A stretch of DNA of 64,000 bases from Xanthomonas sp. (lineage in GTDB: Bacteria > Pseudomonadota > Gammaproteobacteria > Xanthomonadales > SZUA-5): NCBI GenBank assembly GCA_020693165.1, contig JAIMJQ010000001.1, forward strand, positions 142-64,141, read 5' to 3'. Positions 6,568 to 60,115 of this stretch are shown one piece after another. The notes beneath the pieces are model-generated. The model saw only the letters and a list, made by a program, of their open reading frames with translations. It was not told the DNA's origin and made no database searches. Position 1 is the stretch's first letter. The number at the start of each line of letters is the position of its first letter. Both the position numbers and the translations under genes were made by a program.

Positions 6568-6594
6568 GGCGGTGATAGCCGGGCTCTTGTGGCT

Positions 6595-6696
6595 TTTGTA
6601 GTGCCGAGCTTGCTCGGCATGGATTGGCGCAACAGCAGCGGAGCAAGCTCCGCTCTACAGAGAGCGGAAGAGCAGCGGAGCAAGCTCCGCTATCGG
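6595..6696. repeat. Cluster of three GTAG-type REP-like hairpins (family B)
   Basis: Three units are present: ttttGTAGtgCCGAGCTTGCTCGGcatgg, cagcaGCGGAGCAAGCTCCGCtCTACagag and gcaGCGGAGCAAGCTCCGCtatcgg. Each has a perfect 16-bp palindromic core. Related units are at 12847-12915 and 27716-27778. Confidence 0.8.
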
Positions 6697-7789: not shown

Positions 7790-7981
7790 AGGGTCCTCCG
7801 CCGATGCCGATGCGGGTCTCGCGACCTTGATCCTTAAGATCAGGTGGGAAGAAGAGAGCCGCTAAAGGCGGTCCGCTGCGAGGCGGACAAGCACATGCGC
7901 GGTTTGAAACTCTTCCCAAGGTCGACAAACAGGGTCAAGGTATATGGCGGACGCGCTGTCGCACAACGCAGAGGACGCAAG
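7790..7981 (-). ncRNA. ssrS: 6S RNA (putative)
   Basis: A ~190-nt non-coding gap lies between zapA and the 5-FCL gene, the conserved ssrS location. Read on the minus strand it folds as one long imperfect hairpin. GUCCUCUGCG (5') pairs with CGGCGGAGGAC (3'). ACCUUGACC pairs with GAUCAAGGU. UGGGAAGAG pairs with CUCUUCUUCCCA. The apical hairpin is GUCCGC..GCGGAC. The ends are approximate. Confidence 0.6.
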
Positions 7982-14741: not shown

Positions 14742-14810
14742 CTTGTGGGTCCAGACTTGTCTGGACGCTTCATGCGCTTGTGGGTACAGACAAGTCTGGA
14801 CCCACGAAAG
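14742..14810. repeat. Family A GTCCAGAC-hairpin repeat, two units
   Basis: cttgtgggtccagacttgtctggacgct followed by cttgtgggtacagacaagtctggacccacgaaa, between the convergent speD and coq7. Confidence 0.85.
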
Positions 14811-17838: not shown

Positions 17839-17912
17839 TGGGAGATCGTCCAACGGTAGGACAACGGACTCTGACTCCGTTTATCTAGGTTCGAATCCTA
17901 GTCTCCCAGCCA
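17839..17912 (+). tRNA. tRNA-Gln (anticodon CTG)
   Basis: The cloverleaf was drawn by hand. Acceptor is TGGGAGA/TCTCCCA. Anticodon stem is ACGGA/TCCGT with loop CTCTGAC. T arm is CTAGG-TTCGAAT-CCTAG. The discriminator is G with an encoded CCA. It is collinear with E. coli tRNA-Gln as remembered. Confidence 0.9.
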
Positions 17913-17963
17913 CCAACAAAAAGGCCGCCCTTGGGCGGCTTTTTTGTTGGTGGCTGGGAGACT
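17900..17963 (+). terminator. Very long hairpin (31 bp) combining an intrinsic terminator with a reverse-complement copy of the tRNA-Gln 3' end
   Basis: 17900-17930 (agtctcccagccaccaacaaaaaggccgccc) pairs with 17933-17963 (gggcggcttttttgttggtggctgggagact), giving 30 Watson-Crick pairs plus one G-T. The core GCCGCCC..GGGCGGC followed by a T6 run looks like a rho-independent terminator. Confidence 0.75.
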
Positions 17964-18111
17964 GGGTGAGGCCCTGGACAGGTTCGATCAGGAGCACCAG
18001 TCCCGGAGAGCGCGTGCACGGCGCGCAGCCCGGAGTGGGGGGCAGGAAGACCTCTACCGTTCGCCTTGCAGGTTTGCTACGGTGCCCGGCCACGAATCGC
18101 GGAGTGCAGTC

Positions 18112-39686: not shown

Positions 39687-39724
39687 GGCCGGCGAACCAG
39701 AGCAGGTGGAAACGTGCGAACTGC

Positions 39725-39823
39725 GAGGGCACGAGGGCACAAGGGCACGAGGGCACGGAAGCGCAAGTGCGTCGCAACGACCGGCTTTCGCGTGCCCTCG
39801 TGCCCTTGTGCCCTCGTGCCCTC
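39725..39823. repeat. Perfect 33-bp inverted repeat with GAGGGCAC-periodic arms, inserted between ccmA and ccmB
   Basis: The left arm gagggcacgagggcacaagggcacgagggcacg (39725-39757) is the exact reverse complement of 39791-39823. The 33-nt loop starts GAAGCGCAAG. Confidence 0.95.
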
Positions 39824-39831
39824 ACAAGCAT

Positions 39832-40485
39832 TCATCGCGCATGCTCCAGCCGCACGGTGGTCGCCGGCAGTGTGATCGGCAGCACGCCGTGGCTGGTCAG
39901 CATGGCGCTACCGCCGCGGGCAAGGTGGGTGGCGAGCAGGCGCTCGACCACGGCCATGCCCTGGGCGTCGAGGTTGGCGAAGGGTTCATCGAGCAGCCAC
40001 AGCGCGCGTCGACTGGCAGCGAGGCGCGCCAGTGCCGCACGTTTGCGCTGGCCGGCCGACAATGCGCGCGTCGGTGTGTCTTCGTAGCCGGCGAGACCAA
40101 GGTCGACACACAGCGCATCGACGTCGCCGGGATCGGCGTCGCCGCCGATGGCGAGGCCGTAATAAAGATTCTCGCGTACCGTCAGGTCGCCCTTCAGCGC
40201 CAGCAGATGGCCGAGCCACAGCGCACCGGCGCAAAGCGGATGGCGCTCATGCAGCACATCGACGCCGTGGAAGCTGAGTTCATCAGCGGCCAGCGGGTGC
40301 AGGCCGAGCAGCGCGCGCAGCAGCGTGGTCTTGCCGGCCCCGTTGCGCCCTTCGAGCACCAGCAGCTGCCCGGCCGCCAGGTCGATGGCGATCGGAGCGA
40401 ACAACGGTTCCTCGTCGCGCAGGCAGGTGAGCTGCCGCGCTTGCAGTAGCGGGCGGACGTCGGCGATGGCGGCGTTCTGGGACAA
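39832..40485 (-). CDS. ccmA: Heme ABC exporter ATP-binding protein CcmA
   Basis: Walker A GRNGAGKTTLLR, signature LSAGQRKR, Walker B LWLLDEP. The start codon at 40485 is TTG, so the start is uncertain. Confidence 0.92.
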   Translation of the reverse strand: MSQNAAIADVRPLLQARQLTCLRDEEPLFAPIAIDLAAGQLLVLEGRNGAGKTTLLRALLGLHPLAADELSFHGVDVLHERHPLCAGALWLGHLLALKGDLTVRENLYYGLAIGGDADPGDVDALCVDLGLAGYEDTPTRALSAGQRKRAALARLAASRRALWLLDEPFANLDAQGMAVVERLLATHLARGGSAMLTSHGVLPITLPATTVRLEHAR

Positions 40486-44472: not shown

Positions 44473-44497
44473 CGCGAGACTCGCCTTCACAGCGGCT

Positions 44498-44576
44498 CTT
44501 GCGGGTCCAGACTGGTCTGGACGTTGCTGCCCTGCGCCGATGCAAAGGCGTCCAGACCCGTCTGGACCGACAAGTG
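44498..44576. repeat. Family A repeat, inverted pair (diverged)
   Basis: cttgcgggtccagactggtctggacgttgc and gcgtccagacccgtctggaccgacaagtg lie between convergent genes. Confidence 0.8.
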
Positions 44577-44665
44577 CCGGGACACCGATTTGCGCTGGAA
44601 AGTGCTGCGAGAGGGCCGCCGCAAGAGATCTGGAAACCTGGGGAAATCCGCGCAGCGCAAGGCCG

Positions 44666-47306: not shown

Positions 47307-48536
47307 ATGCTCCGGTTGCTGACCAGGACCTGTGCCTGCGCACTTGCCCTGTGGGCGTCCTCGCCAGTGGCCGCCGCGAGCGTCGACTCGGCGGCGTCGC
47401 TGCCGCTGGCCGACACGCTGCCGACAGAAGTGCGGGCCTGGGTCGATGCGGTTTCGGGAAGTGGAGCTACGCCGGCACTCAGCGTCGCCATCGTGCGCGC
47501 GGGTCAAGCCGACTTGCTGTTTACCGCCGGCGAGACGTATACCGGCTCCGGTCAGTCAGTGTCCGAGCACACGGTTTTTCGCCTGGCCTCGGTGTCCAAG
47601 GGATTTGCCGGGACCCTGTGTGGATTGCTCGCCGAGACCGGTTTTCTTTCGCTGCAGCAGAGCGTTGTCGATCTGGTGCCTGGACTGCAACTCGCAGATC
47701 CGGAAGCGCCTGCCGCGTTGACGCTGGAACGCTTGCTCAGTCACCAGACCGGATTGCCTCACCATACCTTCGACATGCGCCTCGAAGCCAATGCTGCGCT
47801 GGCCGATCTGATCCAGTCGTTACCCAGCGTGCGTCCGGCCTGCGCCGTGGGTGGCTGCTATGCGTACCAGAATGTCATGTTCAACGTCGCCGCCGATGCC
47901 GCGTTCGGCGCCGTTGGCAGTTTTTTCCCGGTGGAGCTCAGTCGGCGCCTGCTGGTCCCGCTTGACATGCGCGATACATCGGTGGGTCGCGAAGCACTGA
48001 TGGCAGGCAGCAACTGGGCCCGCCCGCATGTCCAGGCGCGCGGCGGTTGGGTTCCGGTCGAGCCCAAACCTACCTACTACCAGTTGCCGGCGGCGGCAGG
48101 CGTCAACGCCAGCATCCACGATGTGGCGATCTGGATGCGCGCACAACTTGGCGAGCGTCCGGACGTATTGCCATTGCCGGTCCTGGAACTGGTGCAAAGC
48201 ACACGCATCGATACGCCGGGCGAATTGCTAGGTCCGCGCTGGCGCCGCGAACGCGTACGCAGCGCCGGCTATGCACTCGGCTGGCGCGTGTTCGACTACG
48301 CTGGCTCGCGACTGGTGTTTCATGCCGGCGCGGTGCAAGGTTATCGGGCGATGGTCGGTCTGCTGCCGGAGCATGGATTTGGTGTCGCGGTGCTGTGGAA
48401 CTCCAACAGCGGCGTGCCGGCGGGCCTGCTTCCACGCATCCTCGATCGCCAATTGCAGCTGATTGGCCCGGATTGGCTGGACCTGCAGCGCCTGCAGGTG
48501 GCGGCGCAACCACCGGGGCGCAAGCCGCGCGGGTGA
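47307..48536 (+). CDS. Serine hydrolase, class C beta-lactamase/transpeptidase-like
   Basis: Signal peptide MLRLLTRTCACALALWASSPVAA, SxxK motif FRLASVSKGF, and a YxN-like YAYQN. Confidence 0.85.
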   Translation: MLRLLTRTCACALALWASSPVAAASVDSAASLPLADTLPTEVRAWVDAVSGSGATPALSVAIVRAGQADLLFTAGETYTGSGQSVSEHTVFRLASVSKGFAGTLCGLLAETGFLSLQQSVVDLVPGLQLADPEAPAALTLERLLSHQTGLPHHTFDMRLEANAALADLIQSLPSVRPACAVGGCYAYQNVMFNVAADAAFGAVGSFFPVELSRRLLVPLDMRDTSVGREALMAGSNWARPHVQARGGWVPVEPKPTYYQLPAAAGVNASIHDVAIWMRAQLGERPDVLPLPVLELVQSTRIDTPGELLGPRWRRERVRSAGYALGWRVFDYAGSRLVFHAGAVQGYRAMVGLLPEHGFGVAVLWNSNSGVPAGLLPRILDRQLQLIGPDWLDLQRLQVAAQPPGRKPRG

Positions 48537-48845
48537 TTGGTGTGGGTTGTTGGTGGTGGTGTCGGAAAAAGCGAAGGCAGGCCGCAAGCCATCGCAAATA
48601 CCGTTCGTCCCGAGCGTTTCCCGCGAGTCCTGCGAGCGGAAAATAGTCGAAGGACGCCAGCCGCCAGGCATCGCCGAAGCCGCAAGTGCGCTGGGACCTA
48701 CTTCCCCGACTTTCATCGCGGCCACCGCTCTGTCTAACCGCCGCCCCACGAACCAATCCCGCCTTGAACGGGGTGAGTCGAGACGTCTGTCTGTCAGATC
48801 ACTTCGGGCCCGCTTCAACCAACACCGACACCAACAACCGACACC
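48537..48845. repeat. Large foldback element with GGTGTT/GTTGGT-periodic arms (same arm family as 54819-54945)
   Basis: The left arm ggtgtgggttgttggtggtggtgtcgg (48539-48565) matches the reverse complement of the 27 nt 48819-48845 of the right arm (full arm 48816-48845) at 23 of 27 positions. The loop is ~250 bp. It fills the gap between the convergent hydrolase and TonB-like genes. Confidence 0.8.
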
Positions 48846-48857
48846 GCTCCTTCTCCG

Positions 48858-49862
48858 TCAGTTCAGGTTGAACGTCAACCGCTGGCGCGCCTTCGCCGCG
48901 ACGGGTTTGCCGTTTTCGACTCGCGGCGTGAACTTCCATTGCCCAAGCGCACGCGTCGCCTCGCGATCGAACACGCGGCGCGGCTCGGCGTCAACCACGC
49001 TGATGTCTTCGACATCGCCGCTCGCGGTGATCGTGAACGACAACTCTACCCAGCCTTCGGTACGGCTGCGCAGGGCCTGCGACGGATAACTGGGATTGAC
49101 CCGTTTCACCAGCGCGAAGTCTTTGTTTTGTGGTGCCGTCGAGCTGGCTACCGAAGTGGCTGGTGCCGCAGAAGCCACTTGAGTCGGCGGCGCCTGCACC
49201 GGCGCCGGTGCGGTGGGTTCGGGCGGTGGTGCAGTGGCGGGCGCGGCGGGCTCCGGCGGCGGCGCCGGTTGGGCCGCCGCTTGTGCCGCGGCGGCAGCCT
49301 GATCGCGGGCCTGGCGTTCGGCCAGCCGCGCAGCTTCCTCTTCGGCCTTCAGCTGCTGCTCGTCGGCGCGGCGCTGGACCACGATACGTTGCTCGAGATT
49401 GGTCACGACTACCGATGTCGGCTGCGCCCGCTTGAGCAGATTCACCGCCTCCTGGGCCTCATCGAGGCGATCGTCGTCGATCATCTTTTCAGCGACGCCC
49501 TGTGCCAGCGGCATCAATTCCAGAATCGCCAGTTGCGCGTGGCGATTGTCCGGCTCGGCATCCAGTACCTTGAGGTAGTACTCGATCGCGTTGTTGCCAA
49601 CCGGTTGAATCAAACGTTGCTCGCGCATCGCCGAGCGAGCCGCGTCCAGCAATTGGGGCACCGTTTGCAGCGGCGCATCCGCCGCCACTGCCGGTGCCGG
49701 CTCAGCCGCCGGCTGCGCGGCGACCGGCGCTGTCCCGGCGGGGCTGCCCGTCTGCGGTTCTGCGGGCGGCGGATCCCCGCCGCAACCGGCCAGGCCGGCG
49801 ATTGCGGCCAGCATCACGACAATCGGCAGAACCCTGACTCTCTGCGCGCACAACTCGTTCAT
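48858..49862 (-). CDS. TonB-family energy-transducer-like protein (lipobox N-terminus, TPR-like middle, Pro/Ala-rich linker, TonB C-terminal domain)
   Basis: The C-terminus VNPSYPSQALRSRTEGWVELSFTITASGDVEDISVVDAEPRRVFDREATRALGQWKFTP is a TonB_C fold pattern. The internal ATG at 49862 gives MNELCAQRVRVLPIVVMLAAIAGLAGC. Confidence 0.8.
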   Translation of the reverse strand: MNELCAQRVRVLPIVVMLAAIAGLAGCGGDPPPAEPQTGSPAGTAPVAAQPAAEPAPAVAADAPLQTVPQLLDAARSAMREQRLIQPVGNNAIEYYLKVLDAEPDNRHAQLAILELMPLAQGVAEKMIDDDRLDEAQEAVNLLKRAQPTSVVVTNLEQRIVVQRRADEQQLKAEEEAARLAERQARDQAAAAAQAAAQPAPPPEPAAPATAPPPEPTAPAPVQAPPTQVASAAPATSVASSTAPQNKDFALVKRVNPSYPSQALRSRTEGWVELSFTITASGDVEDISVVDAEPRRVFDREATRALGQWKFTPRVENGKPVAAKARQRLTFNLN

Positions 49863-52448: not shown

Positions 52449-54200
52449 ATGTCTAATGCTCTCTCCAACAGCGAATTGTCCGTGCCTTGCGCCTTCGAGA
52501 TCAAGCGAACAAGCGTAGTGGGCGGCGATGGTCGTCGCAGCGTCTCGCTCGCGTCGATCCTGGTGCTGATACTCGCATCGTTTTGCGCGCCGCTTTCGTG
52601 GGCGGACGCCAACCCCGGCATCGACCCGCTCGCAGACGCCATGCAGGGCGAGTTTGCGCTGCAAGCCGGCGTGCTGGACGAGGCTGCGCGCGGTTACGCC
52701 GATGCCGCAATCGCCAGTAGCCAGGTCGCGCTGATCGAGCGCGCGGCGACGGTGGCCTTGTACGCCAAGGACTATGCAGCGGCCGACCGTGTCGGCGCGC
52801 GCTGGTTGTTGGTGGATCCAACTTCGGTCGCGGCGCGCCGGACACTGGCGTGGTCGGCGCTTGCCAGCGGTCGCGTCGATGCCGCTGATGGGTATCTGTC
52901 GCAACTCGCGGCCGTGCGTACGCTGGAGGCGCAGCGCGCAATCGCGCAGGTGCTGGTCGCCGTGGAGAATCGCGAGCATGCGCCGGCCAGCCTGCGCCGA
53001 ATGGCGAACGCCGGGGAATTGCTGACGCTGGACAACGGACCGGTATGGTCGGCGGTCGCCGGCAATCTCGGCGAATTCGCCGTCGCGGTGAAGTTGGCGC
53101 AGGCGGATACCGCGGCGCAGCCAAAGAGTGCCGAGGCCTGGCGGCGCAGCGCCCAGGCGCTACTCGCTGGCGGCGACCGGCAGGCCGCGCGCAAGGCGCT
53201 GGAGCGCGCGCTGGAGCTGGCGCCGAAGGACTTCGAGCTGCGCCTGGCGTTGGCCCGCTTGCACGCGGACGCCGGGCGCCGCGATCTTGCCGACAAGCTG
53301 CTCGCCCAGGCCAGGCCGCAGGACGATCGCGCGTTGGCGGCGCGGCTGGCCAACATCGCCAGCGAGCCGGATGCGAAGGTACTCAAGCGCATCGAGCGCG
53401 AGTTGCTGCGCAGCAAGCCTGACGTGGTCACTTCGCGCGCGTTTCTGTTGGGACAACTGTACGAGTTGCGCGAACAACCCGACCAGGCGCTGTCCTGGTA
53501 TGCCCAGGAGCCGGCGGGCGTCGCCTGGCACGAGTCGCAACTGCGGCGCAGCGTGCTGCTGGCGACCAAGAAAGGCGATATCGTCGGTGCGCGAGCAGTA
53601 CTGGCGGATCTGCGGCGCCAAGTCGAGGATCGCGATCAGCACAGCGACGCCTGGTTGCTCGAGGCCGAATTGCTCGCAGCTGTCGATCGCAAGGCCGCGC
53701 TGGCGGTCTACGATGCGGCCCTGGCGCAAGACAGCCGCGACATCCGTCTTTTGTATGCGCGCGCGCTGTTCCGCATCGGCGACGACGATGTGGCCGGTCT
53801 GGAGCAGGATTTGCGCAGCATCCTCAGCCTCGATCCGGAGAACGCCCAGGCGCTCAATGCGCTGGGTTACACGCTGGCTGATCGCACCGATCGCCAACAG
53901 GAAGCGCTCGACTACATCGGCCGTGCGCTGGCCAAGCAGCCGGACGACGCTGCGTTTCTCGACAGCATGGGCTGGGTGCAGTACCGGCTCGGAAATTTTG
54001 ACGAAGCGCTGCGCTATCTCCGGCGCGCGTTCGAGCTGATCCAGGACGGCGAGGTTGCCGCGCACCTCGGCGAGGCGCTGTGGTCGGCGGGTCGACGTGA
54101 TGAGGCGCAGGCGCATTGGCGCGAAGCGCTCGAACGCTGGCCCGACAACCCGGTTTTGACCGAGAGCCTGCAGCGTTTGCAGCCGGACCTGTTGCCTTGA
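52449..54200 (+). CDS. Tetratricopeptide repeat protein (conserved neighbour of lolB)
   Basis: Multiple TPR-like A/L-rich repeats, a signal-like SLASILVLILASFCAPLSWA segment, and a stop that overlaps the lolB start. ATG 52449 is only 3 nt from the divergent hemA start, so the true start is probably downstream (for example in-frame GTG 52518). Confidence 0.75.
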   Translation: MSNALSNSELSVPCAFEIKRTSVVGGDGRRSVSLASILVLILASFCAPLSWADANPGIDPLADAMQGEFALQAGVLDEAARGYADAAIASSQVALIERAATVALYAKDYAAADRVGARWLLVDPTSVAARRTLAWSALASGRVDAADGYLSQLAAVRTLEAQRAIAQVLVAVENREHAPASLRRMANAGELLTLDNGPVWSAVAGNLGEFAVAVKLAQADTAAQPKSAEAWRRSAQALLAGGDRQAARKALERALELAPKDFELRLALARLHADAGRRDLADKLLAQARPQDDRALAARLANIASEPDAKVLKRIERELLRSKPDVVTSRAFLLGQLYELREQPDQALSWYAQEPAGVAWHESQLRRSVLLATKKGDIVGARAVLADLRRQVEDRDQHSDAWLLEAELLAAVDRKAALAVYDAALAQDSRDIRLLYARALFRIGDDDVAGLEQDLRSILSLDPENAQALNALGYTLADRTDRQQEALDYIGRALAKQPDDAAFLDSMGWVQYRLGNFDEALRYLRRAFELIQDGEVAAHLGEALWSAGRRDEAQAHWREALERWPDNPVLTESLQRLQPDLLP

Positions 54201-54808
54201 GGCGCCTCGGTTGGCTGCTGGTGATCGCGCTGGTGCTGCCAGCATGTGCGCCGCGAGCGATTCGTCCCGCGGCGGCGCCGAATCTGGTGCGTGCCGAGCA
54301 GATGCTGTCGGAACGCGAGTCGCTGTTGTTTGAACGCGATCGCTTCGACCTCGCCGGGCGCATCGCCATCAGCGATGGCAAGGATGGTGGCAGCGGCAGG
54401 TTCGACTGGCAGCAGCGCGGTGCGGCCTACAGCCTGCGCTTTACCGCGCCGGTGACCGCGCGCAGCTGGCGCCTCGAAGCGCAGCCCGGGCAGGCCTTGC
54501 TGATCGAATCGAACGGTGCCGTGCGCGTTGCCAACAGTGCCGAACAGCTGCTGCAGCGGGAACTGCGCTGGCATCTGCCGTCGGACTCGTTGCGCTACTG
54601 GGTACTCGGCATGCGCGCGCCGGGCGCCGCCAGCGATCTCACCTTCGATGCCGAAGGTCGACTTGCGCAATTGCGCCAATCCGGTTGGGAGATTCGCTAC
54701 ATCGAGTTCGACGACGCGCATTCCCCGCCGCTGCCGCGCAAGCTGTTTGCCCGTTCCGGGGAGCACCAGGTGCGCATTTCGGTGCGCAAGTGGACGTTCC
54801 TGGAATAG
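54197..54808 (+). CDS. lolB: Outer-membrane lipoprotein LolB
   Basis: TTG start overlapping the upstream stop (TTGA). Lipobox LVIALVLPAC. Conserved position before ispE. The start is inferred. Confidence 0.8.
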   Translation: MRRLGWLLVIALVLPACAPRAIRPAAAPNLVRAEQMLSERESLLFERDRFDLAGRIAISDGKDGGSGRFDWQQRGAAYSLRFTAPVTARSWRLEAQPGQALLIESNGAVRVANSAEQLLQRELRWHLPSDSLRYWVLGMRAPGAASDLTFDAEGRLAQLRQSGWEIRYIEFDDAHSPPLPRKLFARSGEHQVRISVRKWTFLE

Positions 54809-54818
54809 GCGTGGTGTT

Positions 54819-54945
54819 GGTTGTTGGTGTTGGTGTTGGAAGGGCATAAAGGCGCAAGGCAGGGCGCTGCAACGTGCGCTGTCCGGCTGCCCCCATTGCC
54901 CGCCCGGTGCGGCCGTTGCTTGATCCAACACCAACACCAACAACC
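54819..54945. repeat. Foldback element with perfect 22-bp GTTGGT-periodic arms between lolB and ispE
   Basis: ggttgttggtgttggtgttgga (54819-54840) is the exact reverse complement of tccaacaccaacaccaacaacc (54924-54945). The loop is 83 nt. Confidence 0.95.
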
Positions 54946-54951
54946 GTCGCC

Positions 54952-55797
54952 ATGACCTTTCTGCTCCTCCACCCGCCCGCCAAGCTCAACCGCTTCCTGC
55001 ACATCGTCGGTCGTCGCGAGGACGGCTACCATCGGCTGCAGACGGCTTTCGAGCTGATCGACTGGTGCGACGAGTTGCGCATCGACGTGCGCAACGATGG
55101 CGTCATCGAGCGCCTCGGCGGCTTGCCCGAGGTCTCCGTCGAGTCCGATCTGGTGGTGCGCGCGGCGCGCCTGTTGCAGCCGCTGGCAGCGCCGGGACTC
55201 GGCTGTACCCTGACCCTGACCAAGCACATACCCACTGGCGCCGGACTGGGCGGCGGCAGTGCCGATGCGGCGGCGGTGCTGCTCGGGCTCAATCGGCTGT
55301 GGCAGCTGCGACTCGGCGTCGACGCATTGATCGGGTTCGGTGTGCGCCTCGGCGCCGATGTGCCGGTGTTCCTCTCCCAGCAACCGGCTTTTGCTCAAGG
55401 CGTCGGCGAACAATTGCATGCGCTGCCGCAGGGCGAACGCTTCTACGCTATCGTTTACCCCGGTGTCGCGCTGGCGACCGCCGCCATGTTCGCCGATCCG
55501 TCACTGCGCAGGGATTGCCGGCCGATCACCTTGCAGGATTACCTCGACGGCGTCGCCACCGAAAATGTGTTCGAGCCGATCGCCGTGGCGTTGGCGCCGC
55601 AGATTGGCGCGGCGCTGGACTGGCTCGGCCGGCGCCTCGGTCGCGCGCGACTGACCGGCAGCGGCAGCGCGGTTTACGCCCAGGCCAGCAGCCTGGCGGC
55701 GGCTGAGGCGGCGCTGGCCGACGCTCCGCAGGGATGGACTTGCCGCGCAGTGCGTTCCGTCGCGAATTGGTTTGACAATGAGTACGACCGGGCTTGA
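54952..55797 (+). CDS. ispE: 4-diphosphocytidyl-2-C-methyl-D-erythritol kinase
   Basis: The internal ATG at 54952 gives MTFLLLHPPAKLNRFLHIVGRREDGYH.... GHMP kinase motif PTGAGLGGGSADAAA. Confidence 0.95.
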   Translation: MTFLLLHPPAKLNRFLHIVGRREDGYHRLQTAFELIDWCDELRIDVRNDGVIERLGGLPEVSVESDLVVRAARLLQPLAAPGLGCTLTLTKHIPTGAGLGGGSADAAAVLLGLNRLWQLRLGVDALIGFGVRLGADVPVFLSQQPAFAQGVGEQLHALPQGERFYAIVYPGVALATAAMFADPSLRRDCRPITLQDYLDGVATENVFEPIAVALAPQIGAALDWLGRRLGRARLTGSGSAVYAQASSLAAAEAALADAPQGWTCRAVRSVANWFDNEYDRA

Positions 55798-55867
55798 AAA
55801 TAGCGGGCTCCGCAGTCAGCTGCTGTGCCAAGTCGACAGATGAGGCATGTGGGCGCTGCGGACGGCT

Positions 55868-55943
55868 TGGGGCGTCGCCAAGTCGGTAAGGCACGGGTTT
55901 TTGATACCCGCATTCCTAGGTTCGAGTCCTAGCGCCCCAGCCA
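55868..55943 (+). tRNA. tRNA-Gln (anticodon TTG)
   Basis: Hand-drawn cloverleaf. Acceptor is TGGGGCG/CGCCCCA. Anticodon stem is CGGGT/ACCCG with loop TTTTGAT. T arm is CTAGG-TTCGAGT-CCTAG. The discriminator is G with an encoded CCA. Confidence 0.9.
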
Positions 55944-55953
55944 ACTTCCCATC

Positions 55954-56931
55954 ATGAGCACCAAGCGCACCGACCACACCGCACCCGGTCTGATGATCTT
56001 CACCGGGAATGCTCATCCGCGCCTGGCGAGTTCGATCGCATTCGAGCTTGGCGTGCCGCTGGGCAAATCCAACGTCTCGCGCTTCAGCGACGGGGAAGTC
56101 GCGGTCGAGATCATGGAGAACGTGCGCAGTCAGCATGTTTACCTGATTCAGCCGACCTCGCCACCGGCGGCCGAGAATCTGATGGAACTGCTGGCGATGG
56201 TCGATGCGCTCAAGCGCGCTTCGGCAGCGTCGGTGACCGCGGTGATGCCTTATTTCGGTTATGCGCGGCAGGATCGCCGCGCCCGCAATGCGCGCGTGCC
56301 GATCACGGCCAAGGTGGTCGCCGACATCATCGGCACGGTCGGCACCGATCGCGTGCTGACGGTCGACCTGCACGCCGACCAGATCCAGGGCTTCTTCGAC
56401 GTGCCGCTCGACAATGTCTACGCCTCGCCGGTGTTGCTCGCCGATATGTGGCGCAACTATGCGGGCGACGAACTGATCGTGGTCGCGCCGGATGTGGGTG
56501 GCGTGGTGCGCGCGCGCGCCATGGCCAAGCGCCTCGACGACGCCGACCTCGCAATCATCGACAAGCGTCGTCCGAAAGCCAATGAATCGGTGGTGATGAA
56601 CATCATCGGCGATGTCAACGGCAAGACCTGCATCGTGGTCGATGACATCGTCGACACTGCCGGGACACTCTGTTCGGCGGCGCGCGCGCTGAAGGAGCGC
56701 GGCGCCAAGCGAGTGGTCGCCTATTGCGTGCACCCGGTGCTGTCCGGGGCCGCGGTGGACAACATCAGCAACTCGTCGCTCGACGAAATGGTGGTCACCG
56801 ACACCATCGCGTTGCGCCCCGAGGCTCGCGCCTGCGCGCGCATCCGCCAGTTGTCGGTGGCCGAACTTCTTGCCGAGACCATTCGCCGCATTGCCGGTGG
56901 CGAGAGTGTCAGTTCGCTTTACGTCGACTAG
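55954..56931 (+). CDS. prs: Ribose-phosphate pyrophosphokinase
   Basis: [22 protein letters not shown], and the PRPP loop [14 protein letters not shown] 55954 is only 10 nt after the tRNA and has no SD; an alternative ATG lies at 55993. Confidence 0.95.
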
Positions 56932-56941
56932 CGTCGACGTT

Positions 56942-57046
56942 GGGAAAAGGAAAGAGGAAAGAGGAAAAGGGGGGAGATCAACAGCGGTACGAGGAGCGCC
57001 ATGGCGCTTCGCTTCCCTTTTCCCTTTTTCCTTTTCCTGCTTTTCC
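56942..57046. repeat. Foldback element with GGAAAAG-type purine/pyrimidine periodic arms (after prs)
   Basis: The left arm gggaaaaggaaagaggaaagaggaaaagggggg pairs imperfectly with the right arm cttcccttttccctttttccttttcctgcttttcc. The loop begins gAGATCAACagc, like the 58757-58870 copy. Confidence 0.8.
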
Positions 57047-57203
57047 GAGAGGCGAGTCCTGTGGCCGCAAGCGACCACAGCACTCACCCCTCGGGCCGTC
57101 TGGTCGCGGACGGTGGCGTGGTGGTGAGGCGTGGCGGGGATCGCCGCGGCCTTTCTTTTCACGGTGTTCCGGGATGGAGCGCCTTCAATGAAGGATGATG
57201 ATC

Positions 57204-57917
57204 ATGGCCAAGGTTCGAAACGTGCCGGTGGAATTCCGCGCTGACGAAGGGAAGGGTGCGAGCCGCCGCCTTCGCGCTGCGGGCAAGGTACCGGCGATTC
57301 TCTACGGTGGCGGTCAGGCGCCCCGCGCGCTGCAGTTGGACATGCTGTTGGCGTATCGGTATGCCAACAGCGAGTGGTTCTACACCTCGATCCTGGAACT
57401 GGATGTCGGCAACGAGACGCAGAAGGCGCTGCTGCGCGATCTGCAGCGTCATCCGTACAAGCCGATGCTGATGCACATCGATTTCCAGCGCGTCTCCGAA
57501 ACCGAGCCGGTGCGTCTGCGCGTTCCGCTGCACTTCATCAACCAGGAAGTATCGCCAGCCGGCAAGATGGCCGGTGCGCTGATCCTGCACGAACTCAATG
57601 ACGTCGAAATCAGCTGCCTGCCGAAGGATTTGCCTGAGTTCCTGCAGATCGACCTGTCCAACCTGCAGGTGGGCGACACCATCCACGTGTCGGACATCAA
57701 GTTGCCGGAAGGCGTCGAGATTCCGTCGCTGAAGCTCGGTCGTGAGCACGACGTTGCAGTGGTGGTTGCACGCATGATCGCTGAAGAATTGCCGGAAGTG
57801 CCTGCGGAAGGTGCTGTTGTGCCGGCTGCGCCAGCAGGCAAGAAGCCGGCTGCCAAGGCTGCGGCGGCGCCTGCGGCCAAGGCGGCTGCTCCGGCCAAGC
57901 CTGCGGCGAAGAAGTAA
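57204..57917 (+). CDS. rplY: 50S ribosomal protein L25 / general stress protein Ctc
   Basis: MAKVRNVPVEFRADEGKGASRRLRAAGKVPAILYGG..., with a C-terminal Ala/Lys/Pro-rich tail. Confidence 0.93.
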   Translation: MAKVRNVPVEFRADEGKGASRRLRAAGKVPAILYGGGQAPRALQLDMLLAYRYANSEWFYTSILELDVGNETQKALLRDLQRHPYKPMLMHIDFQRVSETEPVRLRVPLHFINQEVSPAGKMAGALILHELNDVEISCLPKDLPEFLQIDLSNLQVGDTIHVSDIKLPEGVEIPSLKLGREHDVAVVVARMIAEELPEVPAEGAVVPAAPAGKKPAAKAAAAPAAKAAAPAKPAAKK

Positions 57918-57936
57918 GTCCGACCTTCGGGTTCAG

Positions 57937-57972
57937 CATCGGCCGGCCGGAGACGGTCGGCCGATGTTGTTT
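57937..57972 (+). terminator. Intrinsic terminator of rplY
   Basis: CATCGGCCG (57937-57945) and CGGCCGATG (57958-57966) form the stem, followed by TTGTTTG. Confidence 0.6.
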
Positions 57973-57988
57973 GCGGACGTGCAATCGG

Positions 57989-58132
57989 GTGAAACGTAAA
58001 ACGTGAAAGGTCAATCGAAGCACACACTGAATTGACGTTTCACTTGTGACCTTTTCGAGTTGAGTAAAACGTAAAACGTAAAATGTCAATTGAAGCGCGC
58101 TCCGAATTGACCTTTTACGTTTCGCGTTTGAC
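57989..58132. repeat. Two tandem foldback units with AAAACGT-periodic arms (before pth)
   Basis: In unit b, gtaaaacgtaaaacgtaaaatgtcaatt (58064-58091) matches the reverse complement of 58105-58132 at 24 of 28 positions, and the 13-nt loop is GAAGCGCGCTCCG. Unit a (57989-58056) is a more diverged copy; its inner 15 bp match at 13 of 15. Confidence 0.85.
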
Positions 58133-58144
58133 CGCTTACTCCCC

Positions 58145-58756
58145 ATGTCTACGGGCACCTCAATCCGTGTCGTTTTTGGCCTCGGTAACCCCGGCGCCGA
58201 GCACGCGCAGCAACGGCACAACGCCGGTTTCTGGTTCGCCGATGCGCTGGCCGACCAACTTGGCGTACGTTTCTTGACCGAGTCCAAGCTCAACGCTGAA
58301 GTCGGCAAACTTGCCGGTGGCCGCCAGCCACTGCTGCTGGTCAAGCCGACGACGTACATGAATCGCAGTGGCACCGCGGTGTCGGCTGTCCTGAACTACT
58401 ACAAGATCGACCCGTCCGAAGCGCTGATCGTGCACGATGAACTCGACCTGCCGCCCGGCGTTGCGCGCCTGAAGTTCGATGGCGGGCATGGCGGCCAGAA
58501 CGGTTTGCGCGACACCATGGCGCAGCTCGGTCACGGCAAGTTCCATCGTCTGCGCATCGGTATCGGCCACCCAGGGCGCAAGGACTTGGTCACGCCATGG
58601 GTGCTCGGGCGACCGAACGTCGCTGACGGGCAGGCGATACGCTCGGCCATCGACGCCGCCATCGCCGTGTTCCCGCTGTGTCGGGAGGGCGCGATGGAGA
58701 GGGCGATGACGCTATTGCATACACCGTCGGCCAAGTCGGGCGATGGGAGCAAGTAG
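58145..58756 (+). CDS. pth: Peptidyl-tRNA hydrolase
   Basis: GLGNPGAEHAQQRHNAGFW motif; 203 aa. Confidence 0.95.
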   Translation: MSTGTSIRVVFGLGNPGAEHAQQRHNAGFWFADALADQLGVRFLTESKLNAEVGKLAGGRQPLLLVKPTTYMNRSGTAVSAVLNYYKIDPSEALIVHDELDLPPGVARLKFDGGHGGQNGLRDTMAQLGHGKFHRLRIGIGHPGRKDLVTPWVLGRPNVADGQAIRSAIDAAIAVFPLCREGAMERAMTLLHTPSAKSGDGSK

Positions 58757-58870
58757 AGGAAAAAGGAAAAGGGAAAAAGGAATAGGGGGAAGATCAACGG
58801 CACGCAGTCTCAGGTGCGCGACGGCCGCTTTTCCATTTTCCATTTTCCTTTTTCCCTTTTCCTGCTTCTG
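58757..58870. repeat. Foldback element with GGAAAAG-type periodic arms (between pth and ychF)
   Basis: It starts on the nucleotide after the pth TAG. A 19-nt perfect complementary core AGGAAAAGGGAAAAAGGAA is present in the left arm and as ttcctttttcccttttcct in the right arm. The loop begins gAAGATCAACggc. The right arm shares TTTTCCTGCTT with the 56942-57046 copy. Confidence 0.9.
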
Positions 58871-58884
58871 AAGGTCTTCACCAC

Positions 58885-59976
58885 ATGGGCATCAAATGCG
58901 GCATCGTCGGTCTGCCGAACGTCGGCAAGTCCACGCTTTTCAATGCGCTGACCAAAGCCGGAATTGCGGCGGCGAATTATCCGTTCTGCACCATCGATCC
59001 GAATGTCGGCGTGGTGCCGGTGCCGGATCCGCGACTCGATGCGTTGTCGAAGGTCGCCAAGCCACTGAAGATCATTCCGACCACGATCGAGTTCGTCGAT
59101 ATCGCCGGTCTGGTCAAGGGCGCGGCGCAGGGCGAGGGGCTTGGCAATCAGTTCCTCGCGCATATCCGTGAGGTCGATGCGATCTCACACGTGGTGCGCT
59201 GCTTCGAGAACGAGGACATCGTCCACGTCAATGGCAGGATCGATCCGCTGTCCGACATCGACACCATCGATACGGAACTCGCGCTGGCCGACCTCGACAG
59301 CGTCGACAAGGCATTGAATCGTGCCGAGCGCGCCGCCAAGGCCGGCGACAAGGACGCGATCGCGCGGCGCCCGGTGCTGGCCAAGGTCAGCGCGGCGCTG
59401 AACGAAGGCAAGCCGGCGCGTACCGTCGATCTGACAGCCGACGAGAAGCTGCTGATCCGCGATCTTTTCCTGCTGACGCTGAAGCCGGTGATGTACGTTG
59501 CCAACGTCAAGGACGACGGATTCGAGAACAACCCGTTTCTCGACGCCGTGCGCGCGCGCGCCGCGACTGAAGGCGCCGAGGTGGTGCCGGTGTGCGCGGC
59601 GATCGAAGAAGAACTCGGCCAGCTCGATGACGAAGATCGCGCCGCCTTCCTGACCGACATGGGCCTCGACGAGCCGGGTTTGAACCGGGTGATCCGCGCT
59701 GGCTACAAACTGCTCGGCTTGCGCACCTATTTCACCGCCGGCGAAAAGGAGGTGCACGCATGGACCATCAAGGCCGGCTTCACTGCGCCGCAGGCGGCCG
59801 GCGTGATCCACACCGATTTCGAGAAGGGCTTCATCCGCGCCGAAACCATCGCCTACGACGACTACATCCGCTGCAAGGGCGAGGCTGGCGCCAAGGCAGA
59901 GGGCAAGTTGCGGCTGGAAGGCAAGGACTACGTGGTCCAGGAAGGCGACGTGCTGCACTTCCGTTTCAACGTGTAG
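58885..59976 (+). CDS. ychF: Redox-regulated ATPase YchF
   Basis: [24 protein letters not shown]-loop; 363 aa; C-terminal TGS-like end VLHFRFNV. Confidence 0.97.
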
Positions 59977-60115
59977 CGGGAGCCGCGATTGGTCGAAGCG
60001 GCGTGTGCGTGTGCCTCGGTGGTGCCCGGAGCTGTCCGGTGATCCGCCCCGGATTGCCCGCCTCGACGCCGCGTGGCGGGTTCTGCTGGCAGCAACCCCA
60101 CCGTCGAGTTTGCAC

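Follow-up and report, generated by a model that had tools for sequence, protein, structure and literature searches.

The window analysed here is a stretch of 64,000 nucleotides from contig JAIMJQ010000001.1 (assembly GCA_020693165.1), assigned to Xanthomonas sp. of the GTDB lineage SZUA-5. It carries the gene cluster lolB-ispE-prs-rplY-pth-ychF and a ccm operon. Six intergenic loci of this window are occupied by seven hairpins of one design, in which a tandem array of a short oligomer is followed by a loop and then by an array complementary to the first. Four of the five gaps of the lolB-ychF cluster contain such hairpins, as the initial annotation had stated, namely lolB-ispE (E3), prs-rplY (E4), rplY-pth (E5a and E5b) and pth-ychF (E6), and the identities of the genes beside the hairpins were confirmed by Pfam. 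The layout reads, from 5′ to 3′, a G- or purine-rich unit of 6–9 nt (usually 7 nt) repeated about four times, an A/G-rich stretch with a GC clamp, a variable loop and a complementary array of again about four units. Judging from sequence comparison, these hairpins appear to be a diversified branch of a Lysobacterales-wide class that is known from Xanthomonas as convergent GGGAATC pairs.

Hairpin E1 (39722..39826, minus strand) has the arms 39722-39757 and 39791-39826, built as (GAGGGCAC)x4 and separated by a loop of 33 nt. The repeat finder gives 97% complementarity for these arms, RNA folding yields a minimum free energy of -95.1 kcal/mol (z -12.8), and the element is bordered by the ccmA stop codon (39832-39834) on one side and the ccmB ATG (39689) on the other. 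E2 (48539..48845, no strand assigned) consists of degenerate GGTGTT/GGTTGTT units in the arms 48539-48573 and 48811-48845 around a loop of 237 nt; its neighbours are two convergent genes, one of the beta-lactamase family (stop 48534-48536) and one of TonB_C (stop 48858-48860). The remaining hairpins are on the plus strand. E3 (54813..54945) has GGTGTT units and one GGTTGTT in the arms 54813-54840 and 54924-54945, with a loop of 83 nt, and is situated between the lolB stop (54806-54808) and the ispE ATG (54952; z -5.0). E4 (56942..57046), with arms of GGAAAGA units at 56942-56967 (56943-56967 by the repeat finder) and 57013-57037, belongs to the RGGAAAA family, contains an apical GC hairpin at 56993-57010 and follows the prs stop at 56929-56931 (z -3.0). 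The locus 57988-58133, initially annotated as one element at 57989-58132, comprises two adjoining GTNAAAC hairpins, the first of which is decayed. In E5a (57988..58051) a 5′ arm (57988-58009) and a decayed 3′ arm (58037-58051) enclose the core GTCAAT...ATTGAC (58010-58036; z -0.9), and in the intact E5b (58064..58133) the arms 58064-58084 and 58112-58133 (58064-58091/58105-58132 by the repeat finder) enclose the core GTCAATTGAAGCGCGCTCCGAATTGAC at 58085-58111 (z -4.1), with the pth ATG (58145) 11 nt past the hairpin end. E6 (58757..58870), again of the RGGAAAA family, has the arms 58757-58788 and 58825-58868 (58758-58788/58825-58855 by the repeat finder) between the pth stop (58754-58756) and the ychF ATG (58885; z -4.35), and its orthologue is retained in a relative (L003).

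All six loci thus bear out the proposed design, with arms of 3-5 tandem units of 6-8 nt (3.0-4.2 units per arm) and loops of 12-237 nt. The period is 7 in E4, E5a, E5b and E6, 6 with 7-nt variants in E2 and E3, and 8 in E1; Tandem Repeats Finder returned arm periods of 8, 6, 7, 7 and 7. Each of the seven hairpins has the convergent layout of two close arrays with the G-rich strand 5′ on both strands. A strict scan of the window detected 11 periodic tracts, and 9/11 are arms of five hairpins. One hundred dinucleotide shuffles of the window contained on average 1.04 periodic tracts and in no case a complementary partner, so that the elements exceed what shuffled sequence yields, a check that had been proposed at the outset. 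The arm sequences had been described as unrelated. This holds insofar as several unit families are present, but E4 and E6 form one family, having the loop start GGGGGRAGATCAACRGC in both, and E2 and E3 form another, in which the irregular unit order GGTGTK-GGTTGTT-GGTGKT-GGTGTY-GGAA is common to both 5′ arms.

The sequences considered were the 64-kb window, its flanks and fetched loci (designated L with a number), gene calls in relatives being approximations based on open reading frames (ORFs). The window is identical to contigs of the metagenome-assembled genomes (MAGs) GCA_020692335.1 and GCA_017973915.1, and its nearest relatives are Rhodanobacteraceae/Lysobacterales MAGs. At the pth locus of 80 Lysobacterales species (754 kb) we counted 40 periodic-arm hairpins, whereas shuffled sequence gave 0. 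The period is 7 in 39 of them and 8 in the remaining one. The units in these species are mostly of the form GGGANNN (GGGAATC, GGGAACG, GGGACTC, GGGACCC, GGGATTC), and GGGANNN pairs are also present at the pth-ychF gap of the window's relatives. Other units occur in relatives with 73-91% Pth identity: RGGAAAA, GTNAAAC, GTGAGTA, AGTGGTA, TGGTTGT, ACGCAGAG and GGACGCAAA. Regardless of the unit sequence, the design, the polarity and the number of about four units per arm are maintained; 32/45 elements round to four units, and G outnumbers C in the 5′ arm of 42/45. One position of the unit differs from the consensus of its array in 18% of cases versus 2-4% at the others, and it is also the least often paired (69% versus about 88%). 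The stems are hence 6-bp blocks split by frequent mismatches. At both loop borders an A/G-rich stretch followed by GC is enriched, and the inner core is laid out as A-tract, GC hairpin and T-tract. The GAAGCGC-like loop start that the initial annotation regarded as shared is borne out as the loose motif RARRGCS, which 10/45 elements have on each side at no more than about 20 nt from the arm, versus 2.6% of random 23-mers.

A further 47 period-7 tracts in the 80 loci have no detectable complementary partner and may be solitary arrays or decayed hairpin halves. Beyond the window, on the same contig, L001:20335-20488 holds a typical GGGAGTC/GAGTCCC hairpin (a GGGAGTC/GGGACTC pair). Such arrays break short-read MAG assemblies: in GCA_020692335.1 a run of N (L001:20114-20335, about 4 kb past the window end) has its beginning within a GGGACTC array.

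Five of the six loci had been reported to begin 0-10 nt after a stop codon, and our measurements agree, with distances of 5 nt (E1, ccmA), 2 nt (E2), 4 nt (E3, lolB), 10 nt (E4, prs) and 0 nt (E6, pth). Between rplY and the E5a/E5b pair there are 70 nt, which include a canonical terminator. Downstream, the next start codon follows the hairpin end after 6 nt (ispE), 11 nt (pth) or 14-16 nt (ychF), and the elements fill the space from the stop codon to the next ribosome-binding site or start codon. In relatives, empty pth-ychF spacers measure 0-34 nt, the last 10-15 nt or so being the ribosome-binding site. Since the spacer is so short and has the ribosome-binding site at its end, any tolerated insert must abut the stop codon; the distance of 0-10 nt would thus result from the spacer geometry, and a targeting mechanism would not be needed. 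In nine relatives the G-rich arm is free of stop codons, and the pth ORF continues across it to a TAG located 3-6 nt into the loop. Because the pth stop sits there, a GTAG-like loop start is seen in some relatives, as a stop codon and only at the sense-side loop border. Among 74 species, 26 have a periodic hairpin between pth and ychF, 21 another strongly folding spacer and 27 neither, and hence the site is permissive and the hairpin not required.

Paired arrays of this kind have been described before, so the novelty left unverified at first does not apply to the class. Rehm et al. 2015 (PLoS One, PMC4692102) counted about 185 GGGAATC-type heptamer repeats per Xanthomonas genome, of which 70-75 convergent pairs per genome were noted, with four units as the preferred array. 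The ORF upstream of these repeats is 28 nt away on average, and they often overlap its stop codon, are found mostly between co-directional genes, rarely between divergent ones and not on plasmids, and are transcribed; they were interpreted as G-quadruplex (G4) repeats, and no function or regulatory effect was found (PMC4692102). The window hairpins agree with them in the order of bacteria, in the approximately four units, in the convergent pairing with the G-rich strand first and in the intergenic position no more than about 50 nt from the stop codon upstream, the window's five loci lying at 0-10 nt. They differ in that RGGAAAA, GTNAAAC, GGTGTT and GAGGGCAC do not conform to the GGGANTN consensus with its G3 tracts, and in that several families coexist in one genome. 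As the window elements fall outside the unit definition but have the architecture, they are members of a known, poorly understood kind. The published study does not include family replacement, whole-element paralogy, polarity statistics or occurrence outside the order, and the literature searched held no further description of the paired-array class beyond it. New here are the diversification of the unit with the architecture kept, the presence of several families per genome, the replacement at one site and the occurrence outside the order.

Comparison of orthologous gaps indicates that whole elements have been copied to other intergenic sites. GTNAAAC copies with the core GTCAATYGAAGCGC...ATTGAC are located at three different gaps in the window, L003, L004, L006, L084 and L089, and no target duplication was found at the flanks of nine GTNAAAC copies beyond a terminal G...C. 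The same comparison shows that elements decay where they stand and, from one close relative to the next, give way to other families. At the pth-ychF gap, relatives with 73-91% Pth identity carry five families (RGGAAAA, GTGAGTA, GTNAAAC, AGTGGTA and ACGCAGAG), and L005 and L006, with 95% ychF identity, have a different family at two gaps. In the prs-rplY gap of L006 and L004 the 3′ remnant GCTYCT of a replaced RGGAAAA element persists. Filled and empty orthologous spacers, the comparison suggested in the initial annotation, were both encountered: pth-ychF is filled in L027 and empty in L043, L063 and L031, where the pth stop and the ychF start overlap as TAATG. A second such pair is found at prs-rplY, where L084:3681-3930 is a hairpin of about 250 nt with (GCAAAGGAC)n arms and the sister sequence L089:1266-1300 has only GTCCGCAAAGGAC, which is either an array seed or the product of a deletion between GGAC direct repeats. 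The number of units differs between arms and orthologues (7 vs 3 in L003, 11 in L074, a longer 3′ arm in L046), and in L027 a 14-nt double unit is homogenised in one arm only, which supports slippage within an arm as a probable source of length change. Strain variation in unit number was not seen in L001, L002 and L083, all identical to the window.

The design is also encountered in another phylum and in viral sequences. A BLAST search with E1 against plasmids gave one match, plasmid 2 of Gemmatirosa kalamazoonensis (NZ_CP007130.1), whose host belongs to another phylum, and searches with E5 and E6 against plasmids gave no match. The plasmid carries (GAGGGCAS)x5 at L134:1503-1588 and (GCGTGGA)x4 at L134:2754-2829 in two consecutive intercistronic gaps, the first unit being nearly identical to the E1 unit GAGGGCAC. 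In this unannotated record, where the codons are our reading, the first hairpin is preceded at 5 nt by a likely stop codon and followed at 5 nt by an ATG; at the second gap the array directly adjoins a TGA, and the next ATG is about 14 nt past the hairpin. In IMG/VR viral contigs, 42 stretches fit the pattern (GGGANNN)3-N15-45-(NNNTCCC)3 versus 2 with the arms swapped, and many of them lie 3-15 nt after a stop codon. One IMG/VR contig of 40.9 kb has three paralogous GGGATTR hairpins with similar loops, each 6-12 nt after a stop codon (L093:690-766, L093:1614-1691 and L096:13469-13546). Viral scans for (GAGGGCAN)3 and (GTNAAAC)3 returned mostly solitary arrays and only two clear pairs, with the partner downstream in both. 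Taken together, the plasmid and the viral contigs place the design and its polarity outside a single order.

REP, BIME and REPIN elements are dispersed extragenic hairpins of about 70-300 nt that occur at gene 3′ ends and inside operons, are mobilised by RAYT (Y1 HUH) transposases without target duplication, cluster as new copies beside older ones and differ in family between lineages; their RNA stem-loops are read through and can stabilise upstream mRNA. The window class resembles them in lacking target-site duplication. REP arms are 20-40 nt non-periodic imperfect palindromes with a GTAG head, whereas the window arms are tandem oligomers. REP/REPIN families also have a cognate RAYT gene in the genome and tens to hundreds of copies, and no RAYT was seen among the 20 window ORFs scanned. 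As the initial annotation had assumed for REP and ERIC, the hairpins are not members of these families, nor of an Rfam family. Unlike miniature inverted-repeat transposable elements, which have terminal inverted repeats, target-site duplications and a parent insertion sequence, they show no flank duplication. The foldback transposons of Drosophila have long inverted terminal repeats built of short tandem repeats. Being eukaryotic, of kilobase scale and associated with a transposase, they are similar to the window hairpins in architecture only. Period 7 is dominant in intergenic repeats in general: STRR of cyanobacteria, TAACTGA repeats of Beggiatoaceae and the general heptamer excess are further cases, but most STRR/TAACTGA-type arrays stand alone as direct repeats, frequently ahead of a start codon, and are not hairpin-forming inverted pairs. 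The TAACTGA repeats are intergenic heptamer microsatellites (PMC4679880), GGGGAYT arrays are also known from Nostoc (PMC4692102), and Mori et al. 2018 noted that heptamers outnumber all other intergenic periods in prokaryotes and saw "no clear clue" to what they do (PMC6344855).

The explanation that we favour, with a probability of about one half, is that the window hairpins are dispersed DNA hairpins similar to REP/REPIN, with microsatellites as arms, and that they are copied whole, drift by slippage, decay and are overwritten. Much like that of REP/REPIN, their spread would occur at the DNA level, act on hairpins and leave no target duplication, and unit number would drift by ordinary slippage within each arm. 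At tight junctions an insert would be tolerated because it folds away as a compact stem-loop. Transcribed elements would probably be read-through stem-loops like REP/BIME and may, by analogy, protect or define the 3′ ends of upstream mRNAs. Several points weigh against this explanation. No enzyme or mobilising gene was identified, and a scan of 20 window ORFs detected no transposase. To our knowledge, no known transposition mechanism explains periodic arms. Only two copies per family are visible in the 64 kb. The replaced pth-ychF segment of L005/L006 extends past the hairpin and also fits allelic replacement by homologous recombination, and four metagenome contigs of one relative (L085-L088) are identical and without polymorphism. 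Finally, the gene context of 83% of the Xanthomonas repeats is the same in two species (PMC4692102), which speaks for low mobility in that genus.

The initial annotation had considered a single class of foldback elements with arms generated or reset by slippage and snap-back synthesis. One structural class with family-specific units and slippage-like unit changes is in line with the data, whereas snap-back resetting is not supported in general. Its fuller version, growth in place, assumes an ordinary small hairpin or terminator whose stem-proximal 7 nt were duplicated by slippage and whose arms were equalised by intramolecular template switching (snap-back, quasipalindrome correction), and we consider it unlikely. 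It would accommodate the unequal unit numbers of L003, L074 and L046 and the arm-specific homogenisation in L027, and units do resemble the inner stem (e.g. GTCAAAC and GTCAAT). The sequence GTCC-GCAAA-GGAC of L089 could be a seed, as its loop plus half-stem equals the L084 unit GCAAAGGAC, but this pair fits a GGAC direct-repeat deletion equally well. Mirrored unit variants do occur in E1 and in several copies of the window's clade, but with 17/51 central positions in the true register versus 10-14 of 44-50 in registers shifted by one or two units, mirroring does not exceed its baseline. Moreover, GTNAAAC copies of different genomes inherit identical arm-to-arm G·G and C·C mismatches, paralogues have loops and irregular unit order in common, families replace one another at one site leaving remnants, and the universal G-rich-first polarity is not accounted for. 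Two further ideas were rejected. A three-frame stop cassette fits GTNAAAC, GTGAGTA, GGGATGA and GGGATTA units (TAA/TGA/TAG) and fails as a general rule for GGGAATC, GGGAACG, GGGACTC, GGTGTT and GAGGGCAC, and CsrA-type GGA decoys are contradicted by several families without GGA and by the base-pairing of the motif.

Selection at the RNA level, by which any periodic self-complementary sequence could serve as a (bidirectional) terminator, attenuator or RNase processing site, seems somewhat less likely still. It agrees with the placement at stop codons, with the rarity between divergent genes, with the inner core of A-tract, GC hairpin and T-tract and with the purine-5′, pyrimidine-3′ polarity, which matches the A-tract/U-tract of bidirectional terminators. 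Plain GC hairpins of L008 and L009 hold the same prs-rplY place, and in Xac such repeats coincide with transcript starts or ends more frequently than control sites do (PMC4692102). The E4 apical hairpin scores as terminator-like, but together with the separate rplY terminator it is the only structure with a GC stem of 5-20 bp, a loop of 3-8 nt and a U-tract, and a pattern scan of the region detected 5 terminator-like sites with 5.7 expected from shuffles, hence no enrichment. The initial annotation had proposed a terminator or mRNA-punctuation system; the role of an efficient terminator is at odds with the gene arrangement, as only 6-16 nt separate the hairpins from the start codons of the essential genes ispE, pth and ychF. 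This leaves no room for a promoter of their own, and the hairpins must therefore be read through. A scan of 54000-60000 detected no promoter inside E5. Read-through is likewise implied by L007, where the site is empty and prs adjoins the rplY leader directly. Some of the 27/74 species without a pth-ychF hairpin even have overlapping genes, and the L003 copy has uncompensated changes in its 3′ arm. Folding of 44 elements gave no advantage of the sense strand (24 better, 20 worse; Wilcoxon p = 0.89) and no bias in G-U pairs (137 sense vs 157 antisense), which points to complementarity being set at the DNA level and not in the sense RNA. The published interpretation, according to which the four G-tracts of one arm fold into an expression-regulating G4, is the least probable of the explanations considered here. 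Typical GGGANNN units and the four-unit mode suit it, and oligonucleotides of the Xanthomonas repeats fold into G4 in vitro (PMC4692102). In the window's clade, however, the units have diversified into families mostly unable to form G4; GTNAAAC, GGTGTT, RGGAAAA and GTGAGTA lack G3 runs and yet have the same architecture. Since these non-G families keep the position, the polarity and the four-unit mode, G4 formation is not the shared principle. In addition, the complementary partner of most arrays competes with G4 formation, and the published study saw no regulatory effect (PMC4692102). A general role of G4 is thus contradicted by the non-G families, and G4 would be conceivable only as a lineage-specific addition.

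Dispersed REP/REPIN-like hairpins hence remain our preferred explanation. The period of 7, the four units and the G-rich-first order have no account in it. A further proposal, which we regard as highly improbable, is dedicated machinery that recognises structure and not sequence, is shared across phyla and writes or maintains the periodic arms. It might be a recombinase or transposase specific for hairpins, or an enzyme adding templated short repeats to the 3′ ends on both sides of a break. If such machinery existed, it would account for the G-rich-first polarity, the approximately four units and the pattern of six conserved and one variable position, for the sameness of units across loci of one genome as against the differences between genomes, and for the heptamer excess in prokaryotic intergenic DNA.

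As for other features of the window, the Rfam search returned only a 6S RNA (7791-7977, minus strand) and two tRNA-Gln genes on the plus strand (17839-17912 and 55868-55943; CTG and TTG anticodons) at gathering score and no family matching the hairpins; relaxed thresholds added only chance microRNA-precursor matches far below the cut-off. The first tRNA-Gln gene is followed by a strong terminator-like hairpin with 34-nt arms (17897-17966). The leader of rplY (L25) at 57047-57190 is structured and conserved in relatives L003-L012, ends in a terminator-like hairpin (57130-57148) with a T-rich tail, has no Rfam match and probably serves for autoregulation as an attenuator. A separate, classical REP/REPIN-like family is present at 2046-2130, 14745-14805 and 44493-44579, and also at 6583-6673. 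It consists of GGGTCCAGACTTGTCTGGAC palindromes flanked by CTCTTGTGG together with a GTAG-headed REP pair, and all copies follow housekeeping genes. The same REPIN sits in the loop of the lolB-ispE element of L003.

The one study to treat the paired form in detail invoked G-quadruplexes, and the lineage of the window uses units that are mostly unable to form them. What is conserved is the inverted pairing, the polarity, the approximately four units per arm and the position between a stop codon and the next start, and what is not conserved are the G-tracts. With different families in consecutive gaps of one essential operon, and with filled, empty and replaced sites in close relatives, this cluster provides a compact system in which mobility, slippage and effects on operon mRNA can be studied.

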